Assembly (NCBI GenBank): GCA_963790025.1
Contig: CAWBMP010000004.1
Span: 864,001 to 928,000, forward strand
Source: Nitrospirota bacterium
Lineage (GTDB): Bacteria; Nitrospirota; Thermodesulfovibrionia; Thermodesulfovibrionales; Dissulfurispiraceae
Direction: 5' to 3'
DNA length: 64,000 bases
Part shown: in pieces, positions 39,001-42,817 of the stretch
Numbering within the stretch: the first letter of the stretch is position 1
Layout of the letters: every line of letters begins with the position of its first letter
Program-made: the position numbers

Positions 39001-42000
39001 GCCAGATTAGAAGATGAAAAAGCCAAGTCGGAGGCTATACTGGCAGCTATTGGAGACGGCATTTGCATTTTTGACACTGATTTTAAAATACTCTATCAGA
39101 ACCAGGCCCACCAGAATTTCCTCGGCAGTCATGCGGGTAAATATTGTTATAAGGCATATGCAGGGAATGACACCATCTGCGAAGGTTGCACGGTAAATAT
39201 GACTTCTCGAGACTGGGGGACCGGCGTAGTCGAACATTCCGTTCCGGCGGGTGATGGAATTAAGGATTTTGAAAGCGCTGTCTTCCCGCTCAAAGACTCC
39301 GCAGGCAAGATAGCTGCGGGGGTTGAGGTGGTCAGGGAAATAACCGCCCGCAAAAAAGCTGAGGGCGATTTACTCAGGACAAAAAAACTGGAATCAATAG
39401 GGGTCCTTGCCCGCGGCTTCTCTCATGATTTCAATAATCTGCTGACCGGCATTCTCGGCAATATTTCACTCGCAAAAACGTCCGTGTCACCCGAAGACAA
39501 CTTGTTCGGTTTTCTCACAAAGGCGGAAAATGCCTGTCTCCGTGCAGAGCATTTGACCAATCAATTGCACGCGATCGCAAAAAGCAGTGAGTCCAAAAAA
39601 AAGTCCCTCTCCATCAGCGGTCTCATAAAAGAGTCTTCAGCATTTGCGCTTAACGGCTCCGCAATCAAATGTACTTATCAGCTTCCCGATCATCTTTGGC
39701 CTGTCATGGTAGACGAAGGTCAGATTAGCCAGGCTATCTATAACATAGTAGCCAATGCCTGTGATGTTATGCACGGTAACGGGCACATTAAAATCGGTGC
39801 TGAGAATGTCGTTATCGGGTCCCATAACAGCTCCATGTTAAAGCGGGGCAACTACATCAGAATATCGATAGAGGACGAAGGCGCCGGCATCGAGAAAGAG
39901 CTGCTCCACAAAATATTCGATCCCTATTTTACTACTAAAGAGTTAAGCAGTGATACGGGGACGGGGCTAAGTCTGGCCGCGAGCTATTTCGCAGTTAAAA
40001 ATCACCAGGGCTATATTTTTGCCGAGTCAACAGTCGGGGAAGGTACCAACTTTTGCGTTTACCTGCCCTCCGCTTAAACTAAAGCAATTCCGGGAGATCT
40101 TTTGTTTTCAGATGAGGGACGCATTAATCTGACCGCAGGAAATTTGTGGCTATCAATATGGCAGCTTTCATGGCCCATGATGCTCATCATGATCTTGAAC
40201 TTTTTAGTGGGGCTGACTGATGTTTACGTAGCTGGATTCATCAGTCCCGAGGTGCAGGCGGTTGTAGGCTTCGTCGGCCAGATATTTTTTCTCAACATTA
40301 TCATCGCAAATGCAATCAGTGTCGGCACTATTGCACTGCTTTCGCGCTCCATAGGAGCCGGCGATTTTGGAAGTGCGGTAAAAATTGCGAGGCAGTCGCT
40401 CATATTCGGTATTCTGGCTGCCGTAGTGCTGACTACGGCAGGTCTGGTTTTTTTCCGGGAAATAGCCTTTATTGCCGGATTTCCGGGAAATATTCAAGAA
40501 ATTGCCGGACGCTTCATCAGAATTTTTGCCCTGTCGCTAGGGCCGAATTATATCCTGATTATTTCTAACGCCGTATTTCGGGCAAGCGGTGAGGTCAAAA
40601 AAATCATGTTTACCATGTTCGTGGTAAGCGCCGTGAATATTGCGGGCAATTTCGTGTTTGTCTTCGGCATTCCGCCTTTTCCAAGGCTGGGGTATATTGG
40701 TATCGCTATCTCTACAGCGCTCGCTGTAACAGCGGGGATGACTATAAACTTCACTCTATTTGCCTTCAGCAGATGGCGTGCCATCTACCGGGCGCCGATG
40801 GCCCTCTCGGTCGACACTATCAGAAAGGTCATGAGTCTGAGCTGGCCGGCCGCTTTACTTCAGATCGCCTGGAATGCCGGTAGCATTGCTCTTTTCAACA
40901 TACTGGGAAGACTCGGCAGCGCAAGCATCACCGCGCTCGCTTCGCTAACGAACGGTCTCAGAATAGAAGCTATTATCTATCTCCCGGCATTTGCCCTGAA
41001 TATGGCTGCGGCAGTGATCATAGGGCAAAGCCTGGGGGCAAAAGACTTTGCCAGGGCGGAAGAGGCCGGATGGAAGATGGTTTCAGCCGGCATAGCTCTC
41101 GTCAGTGCAATGGCATTCATTATTTTCGTCCGGGCAGAAAACTTTGCGTCAATAATTACCAGCGACCCCTCCGTGCTAAAAGAAACCGCCCGATACCTGA
41201 GATTTAACATGGTATCCGAGCCCTTCATGGCATTAAGCGTAATACTGGGAGGAGGACTTCAGGGAGCAGGGGACACCAGGGGGACTATGAGAATAATTGT
41301 CTTAGCCATGTGGGTCATCAGGATTCCCCTGGCCGGTCTGCTTGCTCTTGTTTTCGGCTACGGGGCTTTGGGGGTCTGGACAGCAATGGTCACTTCCATG
41401 ATCATTCAAGGTATACTTATGGCATATAGATTTCATAACGGACTATGGAAAAAACTAACTCTTGAATAAGCCTTTATAAAGGAGATAGCATGCTGAAATT
41501 GTTTAATACCCTGGGGCGCAAGCTCGAACCGTTCAATCAACGCAAGACCGGGACGGTAACCATGTTCACCTGCGGACCTTCTGTTTACCAGAAGTCCCAT
41601 ATAGGGAATTTCAGGACCTTTTTATTCGAGGACATCCTTCTGCGGTATCTGGAATATCTGGGCTACACGGTGGAGAGAGGCATGAACTTTACCGACGTCG
41701 AAGACAAGGCGATTGCTGAAGCCAGAGGTCGAAAGACCGGCCTGAAACAGCTTACCGGGCAGAACATAAAAATCTTTCTGAAGGAAATGAAACTCCTTGC
41801 CATGAAGGTTCCCGATTTCCTGCCCAGGGCTTCGGAGAGCGTCGAGGAAGCTGCCGAAATCATAGAGCACCTTCTCAACCGCCATGTTGCCTACTGGCAC
41901 CAGGGGAGTGTCTATTTTGATCCACTGATGTTCCCCGGGTTCGGAAAGCTCTACGGGCTAGACATGTCACACTGGCCAAAGAAAAAAATACGTTTCCATA

Positions 42001-42817
42001 AGGACACATATCCGGGCATTCAGTGGAACCTCGGAGATTTTATTCTATGGCACGGTTATAAAGAGGGCGATGGCATTTACTGGGATACAAAAATAGGCAG
42101 GGGAAGACCATCCTGGAATATCCAGGACCCGAGCATGATCGTCAGATATTTCCATGAGACACTCTCGGTCTACTGTGGAGGCATCGATAACCTTTATCGT
42201 CACCACGATTACAACCTGGCCATACTCGAATCGCTAAAGGATGATCCAAGATACCGGTTCCGGCCCATGTCCAGGTTCTGGCTGCATTGCCATCATCTCC
42301 ACGTAAACGGCCGGAAGATGTCAAAGAGCAAGGGGAATATTCATTACATCGAAACGCTTCAGGCATTGGGCTATACGCCGTCTGAAATCCGGTTTTTCCT
42401 CATATACTGCCATTACCGCCGGACACTCAATTTCTCGGAGAGCGCCATTGCGGCTTCCGCTGAAAAGCTCAGGCGACTTAAAAAGACCATCGAGGCTTTA
42501 ACAAAGAAAATGCACAGCGGGCAGAAGAGTACCGACAGCGTCATGTCGCGTACCATAAAAAAACGCTTTGAAGATCATATGGATAACGACCTCGATGTCA
42601 GGCAGGCTTTTGATGAAGTATACAATACGGTTATTCAGATTGATCCGACCGCGACAGGATCCGGCGACGGTGCGGCTATTGTACTTGCGCTCAAAGAAGT
42701 GGATCAGGTACTGCAGGTGCTTTTCTAGACCTTAATAAGCAGTGCGTGACAGGTTGCCGAGAAAAATTCATTGGCAACATGGCGTAGAATGTGGTATTTT
42801 ATAGGATATTGGGGCTG

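Follow-up and report, generated by a model that had tools for sequence, protein, structure and literature searches.

Truncated paralogues of aminoacyl-tRNA synthetases have repeatedly been a source of new enzymes, such as MshC, GluQ-RS and the carrier-protein ligases. GluQ-RS (YadB), the amino acid:carrier-protein ligases and HisZ are described as paralogues of this kind in passages of PMC9437257 and PMC7373986, and a passage of the former presents MshC as a CysRS paralogue that works on a small molecule. The part of PMC5389517 that deals with CysRS* gives as its hallmarks a gene downstream of selB*, a selC* tRNA (U73, UCA anticodon, A1:U72) and a PTVS motif in CP1. Sections of PMC10655014 name C28 and C209 as cysteine ligands of CysRS, and report that the C209D exchange greatly lowers the translation activity of the E. 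coli enzyme. No description of the paralogue family presented here was found in the literature searched.

The window, i.e. the whole stretch of 64,000 nucleotides that was analysed, encodes a CysRS paralogue of 412 residues directly behind a MATE transporter (Table 1). The survey's finding had been that this protein exists beside a true CysRS, lacks the anticodon domain and falls below the CysRS and MshC cut-offs, all of which is borne out. The canonical CysRS of the same genome (C4:945334 ff.) scores 576 bits on the cysS profile TIGR00435 and is 30% identical to the paralogue, which reaches 300.8 bits against a cut-off of 340 (270-316 for other family members) and 174.3 bits against 485.1 on the MshC profile TIGR03447. 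The anticodon-binding domain at the C-terminus is missing: the paralogue stops after the helical bundle, whereas the genome's own CysRS runs 70 residues further. An AlphaFold2 model (pLDDT 92) has CysRS as its best Foldseek matches (TM 0.87), matches in the ESM Atlas are to CysRS/MshC-type clusters only, and in a tree the family adjoins full-length CysRS of the HIGNFRT type. Database labels on family members read 'cysteinyl-tRNA synthetase', 'class I tRNA ligase family protein' or 'hypothetical protein'.

Table 1. Features of the paralogue locus; positions count from the first letter of the window.
Feature	Position	Strand	Remarks
PAS histidine kinase	38746-40077	+	24 nt 5' of the MATE gene
MATE transporter	40102-41469	+	455 aa; one copy in the window genome
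AGGAG ribosome-binding site	41480-41484	+	between the MATE and paralogue genes; read directly
CysRS paralogue	41490-42728	+	412 aa; Rossmann fold, CP domain, stem-contact fold, helical bundle
C28-G-P-S31 and H37-I-G-N40	41571-41609	+	first metal ligand (putative), amino-acid pocket, ATP motif
CP-domain segment W162-P...R168-F-H-K-D-T-Y-x-G...W179-N-x-G182	41973-42035	+	family-specific; basic and aromatic
W209-N-I-Q-D213	42114-42128	+	E. coli WHIEC; C209 replaced by Asp
R237-H-H-D-Y-N242	42198-42215	+	E. coli PHHENE, MshC PHHEYS; new invariant Arg, E238 lost
KMSKS motif	42315-42329	+	intact

The paralogue gene starts 20 nt 3' of the MATE gene, and the AGGAG site within this gap is consistent with a single operon. 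A promoter and terminator scan came close to chance (14 versus 9.3 and 7 versus 5.5), and an Rfam scan returned two tRNAs and nothing else. Orthologues of the PAS histidine kinase (61-71%) are limited to the 8 closest loci, which makes the kinase a local neighbour and no core part. The paralogue gene does not lie inside the mobile element integrated at tRNA-Ala, viral contigs yielded no relative, and the 10 best matches on plasmids are about 31% identical. Apparent fusions in loci L040, L045, L046 and L052 were rejected as an upstream MATE gene read off-frame in GC-rich DNA.

Residue counts within the family refer to 172 sequences (83 of a main bacterial clade, 77 archaeal-type and 12 of a second bacterial clade) from which row L052 is left out; counts over 173 rows include it. 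Full-length CysRS were represented by 120 sequences, one of which is a frameshifted member of the paralogue family; some counts refer to 119 of them. The lengths of 193 distinct relatives run from 365 to 438 with a mode of 405 (122/193), so that the mode given by the survey is recovered, with a range close to its 371-450. Identity to the window's paralogue is 52-59% in five distant genomes, on a par with the 50-56% found for canonical CysRS in four of them, which points to strong constraint. Conservation is highest in the CP domain (mean 0.75) and lowest in the helical bundle (0.44; 1 of its 96 columns reaches at least 97%). A CysRS copy in decay or devoid of catalysis, which could explain the score below the cysS cut-off, the split matches at some loci and one degenerate member (P0243), is very improbable for a family that is conserved across phyla like a housekeeping CysRS, with 76 alignment columns at 97% or more and intact ATP motifs. 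A conserved, repurposed CysRS paralogue is thus supported.

Alignment to the E. coli enzyme (1li5) confirms the motif changes noted in the survey: HIGH to HIGN, WHIEC to WNIQD and HHENE to HHDYN. T31S, H206N, E208Q, C209D, P233R, E236D and N237Y are each found in 171-172 of the 172 family sequences, and C28, H37, N40, K73, W209, D233, H238, H239, K276 and K279 in all 172. Sixteen positions are fixed in the family yet rare among the 119 full-length CysRS, of which 118 retain the Thr31 that is S31 in the paralogue. We take the zinc ligands of CysRS to be C28, C209, H234 and E238; in E. coli numbering the family keeps C28 and H234, has Asp at 209, and carries T, S, N, I or V at 238. The loss of two of four ligands had been taken to suggest a substrate other than cysteine, a conclusion that it does not warrant. 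Of the 120 full-length representatives, 94 have H(I/L)GN, as does Borrelia CysRS (3sp1), and Asp replaces Cys209 in 5 of the 120, all above the cysS cut-off. E238 is present in 119 of 120, the frameshifted family member being the sole exception, and its loss is common to the family and MshC, with the same Tyr-Ser/Thr. Since all three changes occur in CysRS or MshC, a non-cysteine substrate is only possible, and the fixed changes taken together, more extensive than in MshC, make a better argument for a new substrate than the loss of zinc ligands. The lowered translation activity of C209D in E. coli also counts against plain activation of cysteine.

The paralogue probably does not serve translation. 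A canonical-type CysRS match is also present in 32/32 paralogue-bearing genomes of the order and in 5/5 such genomes of Bathyarchaeia. A short CysRS as the sole route to Cys-tRNA was rejected for other archaea whose only CysRS match lacks the anticodon domain, as 5/5 of the genomes tested have SepRS. The CP-domain segment is likely to form a putative acceptor-binding surface; residues 158-176 hold a median of 6 K/R and the net charge is +14, a basic character that would also suit RNA binding. An enzyme acting on RNA, by charging tRNA-Cys (for example as an oxidation-tolerant back-up), by mischarging other tRNAs, or by aminoacylation in tRNA modification in the manner of GluQ-RS (YadB), would fit this positive charge and the retention of R168, D172, Y174 and Y309, and an engineered CysRS without its anticodon domain could still charge tRNA according to a section of PMC5389517. 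One oxidisable Cys ligand fewer would, moreover, suit the antioxidant neighbours described below. An RNA-acting enzyme is nevertheless doubtful: besides the presence of a canonical CysRS, the helical bundle is hardly conserved, with the equivalent of N351 being Asp in 101/172 and Asn in 33/172; ARAGORN with default settings found no tRNA with a Cys or Sec anticodon in 216 family loci; and the MATE link hardly makes sense for an RNA product.

The survey had left room for an overlap with CysRS*, which charges the selC* tRNA so that UGA is read as cysteine. Shared with this group are the missing anticodon domain and an altered CP1 segment, and the family occurs in Desulfobacterota and Nitrospirota, phyla for which selC* is reported in part of PMC5389517; 4 of the 32 order genomes with the paralogue also have a second selB. 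Such membership is extremely improbable, being largely refuted on genomic criteria in a comparison that contained no CysRS* sequence. A translation-GTPase motif is absent from 252 loci, five selC*-type tRNAs gave no blastn match in the 216 family loci or the window genome, and PTVS occurs in 0/173 rows. The 28 other paralogue genomes have a single selB, the family is missing from 5 of 9 genomes with at least two selB genes, and no CysRS-like gene lies in 12 loci of a second selB, of which 9 have a UCA tRNA. The window genome has one tRNA-Sec (G73) and one tRNA-Cys.

The family is carried by many bacteria and archaea that avoid oxygen. Its presence in the order is upheld, at 32 of 201 genomes drawn evenly as compared with 89 of 317 in the survey; among 7998 proteins scored, 4339 match at E<=1e-60, a number that may include canonical CysRS. 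Of the Chloroflexota, which the survey included, one locus so labelled was present here (L034), and it is doubtful: the canonical CysRS of its genome is 74% identical to that of the window genome and, like it, lies in a 715-aa frame.

The MATE protein scores 197.5 bits on TIGR00797, above the cut-off of 147.4, and far under the cut-offs of every named equivalog. Its gene lies immediately upstream of the paralogue in 20/30 order loci and 42/73 named-genome loci, so that the pairing stands at lower frequencies than the 27/30 and 51/80 first given. One reading that draws on this link is a two-gene cassette, serving detoxification or a small metabolite, in which the ligase would act on an amino acid that has no relation to cysteine and the MATE protein would export what it makes. 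Within the main bacterial clade, 54 of the 83 sequences have the transporter next to them, in two phyla; the 201 order genomes divide into 25 with both genes, 7 with the paralogue alone, 6 with this MATE subfamily alone and 163 with neither; and pairwise identities of the two genes correlate (Spearman 0.56; 52 gene pairs, one row mis-extracted). Seven pocket positions altered and fixed, more than in MshC, would also agree with it. Such a cassette is still unlikely, because 89 sequences without a MATE neighbour (0/77 archaeal-type and 0/12 second-clade bacterial paralogues adjoin one) have these active-site residues fixed as well, the 7 and 6 order genomes hold either gene without the other, C28, W209 and H238 are retained, and HIGN, C209D and loss of E238 are each found in cysteine-using or cysS-classified enzymes. 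Export is hence not intrinsic to the family, contrary to what had been proposed, and MATE is best read as a clade-specific partner, co-inherited in one bacterial subclade. Of the survey's ligase idea (tRNA-independent, not for cysteine, coupled to export), the repurposing stands and a non-translational role is probable; the arguments for substrate and export are weaker. Neighbour clustering (73 named loci, and 86 that are mostly of archaeal type) and Pfam scans, one of which took 48 of 87 immediate neighbours, the remainder being short or in clusters already identified, revealed no third conserved gene and no conserved biosynthetic partner beside the paralogue.

Where MATE is missing, antioxidant genes are found as neighbours, often for peroxiredoxin (within 1.5 kb in 41/77 archaeal-type loci), also for SOD, rubrerythrin and thioredoxin. 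When each of the 68 clusters at 72% is represented by a single locus, core antioxidant genes per 100 kb number 4.0 at 0-1.5 kb, 2.9 at 1.5-3 kb, 1.1 at 3-5 kb and 0 at 5-8 kb, against a window genome background of 0.32, in a count whose redox seeds were picked after the loci were seen and drawn from them, and in which 4 of the 8 nearest matches belong to one peroxiredoxin clade. No antioxidant gene lies near canonical CysRS in 25 Bathyarchaeia loci, and most family loci, the window's included, lack a redox neighbour. Fe/Mn-SOD is present in 32/32 paralogue genomes and 100/169 others, a difference confounded by kinship. A PIG-L deacetylase (MshB/BshB kind) occurs in 21/32 paralogue genomes and 57/169 others; as it is missing in 11/32, the acceptor need not come by a mycothiol or bacillithiol route, and none can be named. 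A zinc-sparing paralogue was rejected, the scanned neighbours including no zinc-uptake gene and only a cation-efflux family, at 4 loci.

Another reading makes the paralogue an enzyme devoted to cysteine persulfide synthesis, a reported PLP-dependent side activity of CysRS, which would act free of translation and supply persulfide to antioxidant defence or Fe-S assembly. Passages of PMC5660078 and PMC10655014, which describe the same experiments, report that laboratory variants of E. coli CysRS with C209D or C28/209D still make persulfide but are no longer active in translation. The family has C209D naturally, equivalents of K73, K266 and K269 in 172/172 sequences, and neighbours that include peroxiredoxin, NifS/NifU and one SufBD gene. 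This role is quite unlikely all the same: K76, reported as necessary, is Lys in 24/172 and Ala in the window's protein, the retained lysines are standard class I residues, and persulfide activity would not call for the ATP site, the metal site and the CP segment to be so strictly conserved. K76 is variable in full-length CysRS too (36/119).

In oxidative stress, the paralogue would probably attach a cysteine-like amino acid, its putative substrate, to a small molecule. The fuller proposal, a tentative one given rather less than an even chance, is an ATP-dependent, tRNA-independent, MshC-like amino-acid ligase that arose independently from CysRS and uses cysteine or oxidised cysteine in redox defence. 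Its conserved motifs suggest that the Rossmann-fold site would adenylate a free amino acid, the side chain being held by a C28/D213/H238 metal centre near W209 and the new Arg237, and that the aminoacyl group would then pass to a non-tRNA acceptor on the remodelled CP domain. The product may be used in thiol or redox-stress metabolism of anaerobes, and in one bacterial subclade the co-inherited MATE probably exports it or its conjugate. As to the amino acid, cysteine or oxidised cysteine is the most likely, and cysteine itself and an oxygen-donor side chain are roughly equally probable. A narrower version, itself rather doubtful, has an oxidised cysteine (sulfinate, sulfonate or S-sulfo) bound at the harder Cys/Asp/His site and conjugated to a small acceptor. 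Arg237 would then meet the anionic side chain, with added room at the former E238, and the conjugate might be recycled or exported by MATE, or the enzyme might instead build a low-molecular-weight redox compound, so far undescribed, of anaerobes living in sediments.

If true, activation of oxidised cysteine would add a new branch to the oxygen defence of sulfate reducers, syntrophs and Bathyarchaeia. The paralogue is soluble, consists of one protein and has a confident model, so one substrate screen could identify its amino acid. A positive outcome would explain the rewiring of a zinc-thiolate pocket for a new substrate and might bring to light a redox metabolite, or a pathway for damaged cysteine, in microbes that abound in sediments.

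Compared with described systems, the paralogue shares with class Ia CysRS (PDB 1li5, 1u0b, 8qhp, 3sp1) the fold, C28, W205, H234, H235, KMSKS and, with Borrelia-type enzymes, HIGN; it differs in its missing domain, seven pocket changes, lost E238, new CP segment and sub-cut-off score. GluQ-RS, the carrier-protein ligases and HisZ likewise reuse a catalytic core beyond translation, but derive from other parent synthetases, and no carrier-protein or known pathway gene lies beside the paralogue. With the persulfide activity of CysRS (Akaike et al., in part of PMC5660078) it has in common the uncoupling C209D change and three of four lysines, that activity being a side function of canonical enzymes and no separate family. 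The CysRS* of Desulfobacterales (Mukai et al., in part of PMC5389517) is also a second cysS copy without the anticodon-binding domain and with a changed CP1, whereas the paralogue lacks selC*/selB* linkage and has a far wider range that includes archaea. The paralogue is neither MshC nor, judged by genomic criteria and the PTVS motif, CysRS*. MshC (mycothiol cysteine ligase; PDB 3c8z) is nevertheless near-equal in length (413-414 aa) and has the same HH-[E/D]-Y-[S/T] pattern in place of HHENE, HHEYS in MshC and HHDY[T/S/N] in the paralogue. It retains WHVEC and the Pro before HH, whereas the paralogue, with WNIQD and Arg, stands nearer to CysRS and lives in non-actinobacterial hosts.

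The survey's finding described a 412-aa CysRS paralogue with altered motifs and an early end, encoded behind a MATE transporter gene, and the open reading frames, alignment and profile scores bear out these features (see table). The protein has a match to PF01406, the catalytic domain of CysRS (E 5e-69), and scores 300.8 on the cysS profile, under the cut-off of 340, and 174.3 on that of the mycothiol cysteine ligase MshC, under 485.1. In the alignment to E. coli CysRS, HIGH has become HIGN, WHIEC has become WNIQD and HHENE has become HHDYN, and the chain ends just past the helical bundle. 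An AlphaFold2 model built with 115 relatives as input (pLDDT 92) finds CysRS as its best structural matches (TM 0.87), with MshC at TM 0.81-0.83. A canonical CysRS is also present in the genome (about 40 kb away, 30% identical to the paralogue, 576 bits). This gene, outside the window (locus excerpt L001:4642-6804, G000:C4), shares one 720-aa frame with a preceding region that resembles serine acetyltransferase (CysE), either as a fusion or as coupled genes, and open frames of 700-760 aa recur over much of the order Thermodesulfovibrionales.

Features around the CysRS paralogue (window positions)
Feature	Position	Strand	Remark
selB	4147-6075	-	the genome's single copy, 35 kb from the paralogue
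MATE gene	40102-41469	+	ORF
CysRS paralogue	41490-42728	+	412-aa ORF; begins 20 nt past MATE, AGGAG site ahead
tRNA-Ala(GGC)	42811-42884		downstream of the paralogue
Integrase	42917-43993	-	next after tRNA-Ala(GGC)
976-aa protein	47608-50538	-	inside the integrated element
Repeats of tRNA-Ala 3' end	~50757-50804 and 51526-51568		

The repeats of the tRNA-Ala 3' end mark an integrated element of about 8 kb (42811-50804), whose 976-aa protein, as read from its sequence, carries many near-identical TPR-like repeats and then a metallo-beta-lactamase-like HAHFDH motif.

The 172 distinct full-length family members all have C28, S31, H37, N40, K73, W209, N210, D213, D233, R237, H238, H239, D240, Y241, K276 and K279; Q212 is kept in 171, and position 242 is T in 102, S in 36, N in 15, I in 12 and V in 5. 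The canonical metal site of CysRS has four ligands (Cys/Cys/His/Glu). Sixteen positions are constant in the family and rare in 119 full-length CysRS representatives. Most of these representatives instead have Thr at S31 (118), His at N210 (all 119), Glu at Q212 (118), Cys at D213 (113) and Pro at R237 (112); Y241 is also family-specific, and W162, P163, F169, T173, G176, W179 and G182 of the CP domain belong to the same set. Conservation is highest in the CP domain and lowest in the helical bundle. Such constant but different residues indicate, we infer, a new specificity together with relaxed contact with the tRNA body; that the family is a dead copy of CysRS is scarcely credible.

The family is a real, widespread CysRS paralogue with a rebuilt pocket, and apparently undescribed so far. 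Full-text searching, with most subscription journals outside its coverage, found no paper on it, and the passages available of PMC9437257 name as CysRS paralogues only MshC and CysRS*, a second cysS copy without anticodon domain. Carriers number 32 of 201 genomes of the window's order, and 14 of 201 in a sample of the phylum, all 14 inside that order. Named relatives carry the labels Nitrospirota (in many cases Thermodesulfovibrionales or Dissulfurispiraceae, in a few Nitrospira), Desulfobacterota, Syntrophales and, once, Bathyarchaeota; the family occurs in 5/121 Bathyarchaeia genomes and about 21/149 genomes of the order of G202 and G203 (G203 bears the label Desulfatiglandales). These lineages are anaerobes. 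A second, canonical-type CysRS match accompanies the family in 32/32 order genomes and 5/5 Bathyarchaeia genomes. Copies from five distant genomes are 52-59% identical to the window's copy, and the canonical CysRS pairs of four of them 50-56% identical; in the fifth (locus L034 of G204, labelled Chloroflexota), the canonical CysRS, in a 715-aa frame, is 74% identical to that of the window's genome, so that the label is doubtful and a mixed bin or gene transfer is possible. A further CysRS-like match in frames of 770-800 aa is near universal in the order of G202 and G203 (G202:C79, G203:C184 and most others), and long representatives resembling these frames show changed motifs (P0168).

In a tree of 53 sequences, rooted on the window genome's own CysRS, with long branches and MshC and CysRS* left out, the family and one degenerate member group together on a long stem (SH-aLRT 94), a clade that a 148-sequence FastTree found again. 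It sits within short CysRS relatives that lack the anticodon domain and retain the second Cys (support 100 and 97); next to these relatives stand full-length HIGNFRT-type CysRS. The simplest order of change would be loss of the anticodon domain first and rebuilding of the pocket second. Intermediate or degenerate relatives include P0154 (WNVQC, HHENT) and the short second copy at L280 (WHIQD, HHEAH); P0243 is a family member with decayed motifs.

According to the passages available of PMC5389517, the CysRS* gene lies downstream of selB*, its product carries the motif PTVS in CP1, and a selC* tRNA is encoded without exception in the genomes that have it. A translation-GTPase motif was found in none of 252 loci, PTVS in 0/173 aligned rows, and selC* in neither 216 family loci nor the window's genome; a relaxed ARAGORN setting gave nine scattered low-score tRNA calls, without support from selC* blastn. 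A single selB is present in 28/32 family genomes, and 12 second-selB loci held no CysRS-like gene. Identity with CysRS*, judged by its published description and not its sequence, is rejected as next to impossible, as neither selB*/selC* linkage nor PTVS was found. Separately, second selB copies at L283, L284, L288, L289 and L292 (one genome is from Nitrospirota, the others are of Desulfatiglandales type) have selC*-type tRNAs (U73; UCA or GCA anticodon) beside them and no CysRS* gene.

The gene immediately upstream, in the same orientation, is MATE at 42/73 named-genome loci (42/68 with enough flank) and 20/30 loci of the window's order, and the pair is common to two phyla, both genes at 55-64% identity. 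Among the 201 order genomes, 25 hold the paralogue and a MATE orthologue, 7 the paralogue alone, 6 the MATE orthologue alone and 163 neither, counts on which any co-occurrence test is inflated by kinship. Counted over distinct proteins, and as locus adjacency only, the pairing proposed by the survey stands in the main bacterial clade (54/83) but fails family-wide, with no MATE neighbour at archaeal-type loci (0/77; 0/61 with enough flank), three of whose sequences group with the second bacterial clade, or in that clade (0/12). Since the active site is identical in all three groups, export would be a partnership limited to one clade. Export as such is plausible but unproven, and a ligase for an unrelated amino acid, its product made for export, is unlikely.

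Other neighbours concern redox defence. A peroxiredoxin gene lies within 1.5 kb of the family gene in 41/77 archaeal-type loci, nearly always directly upstream and in one clade; in other lineages the nearby genes include SOD, rubrerythrin, thioredoxin, thioredoxin reductase, hemerythrin, encapsulin ferritin, OsmC, NifS/NifU or SufBD. When each 72% identity cluster (68 in all) is represented by a single locus, the density of core antioxidant genes drops with distance: it is 4.0 per 100 kb up to 1.5 kb away and then 2.9, 1.1 and 0, against 0.32 in the window's genome, the only background genome, with seeds taken from these same loci after they had been inspected. With the peroxiredoxin clade counted once, five redox-neighbour events were seen against 0.64 expected; 25 canonical Bathyarchaeia CysRS loci had no core antioxidant neighbour. 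SOD is present in 32/32 family genomes versus 100/169 others, and within two host families in 23/23 versus 12/20. Most family loci, the window's included, have no redox neighbour. Gene context across the family points to redox defence at least as much as to export or a non-cysteine substrate; a dedicated persulfide synthase is improbable. Some neighbouring peroxiredoxin and thioredoxin genes (L013:1134-1628, L017:355-777, L009:4110-4544, L055:9389-9754) are interrupted in frame by a stop codon at the site of the catalytic Cys or close to it, and probably encode selenoproteins.

We tentatively favour, at somewhat less than an even chance, an ATP-dependent, tRNA-independent ligase acting in the manner of MshC, which would join cysteine or oxidised cysteine to a small-molecule acceptor for redox-stress metabolism; in one subclade MATE would serve as the exporter. 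The acceptor would not need to be of the mycothiol or bacillithiol type, because PIG-L, present in 21/32 family genomes versus 57/169 others, is absent from 11. An RNA-acting enzyme is rather unlikely. Against tRNA independence, the CP segment is basic and, in the passages available of PMC5389517, an engineered CysRS without anticodon domain charged tRNA; in favour of it, eight sampled Thermoproteota genomes have a short CysRS as their sole CysRS match and carry SepRS in 5/5 tested. These short enzymes (L269:1483-2676 and L273-L279; G484, G477, G551, G491, G505, G519, G533, G512) form a separate, unrelated group without anticodon domain and with the Cys/Cys/His/Glu site intact; given SepRS, they may be another non-translational cysteine ligase.

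For the MshC-like ligase, the survey's grounds for excluding cysteine (HIGN, lost ligands) do not suffice, as the same changes occur in CysRS or MshC sequences. Of 120 full-length CysRS representatives, whose choice was biased towards the query, 94 have H(I/L)GN, as does Borrelia CysRS; WHIED occurs in 5/120, all above the cysS cut-off and classified by score alone; Plasmodium CysRS has Asp at E236 (E. coli numbering). Asp can still bind zinc, and the invariant Arg beside H238 (paralogue numbering) would presumably fit an anionic side chain. Pointing away from cysteine, C209D greatly lowered the activity of E. coli CysRS in translation, according to the passages available of PMC10655014. A non-cysteine substrate is plausible but unproven, with cysteine and an oxygen-donor side chain about evenly balanced. 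E238 is present in 119/120 full-length proteins, and its loss would track exit from translation more than exit from cysteine. The motifs of MshC are WHVEC...PHHEYS, which shows that an enzyme ligating cysteine can lack E238 and share the family's Tyr; pointing the other way, the family exceeds MshC in H206N, E208Q and P233R.
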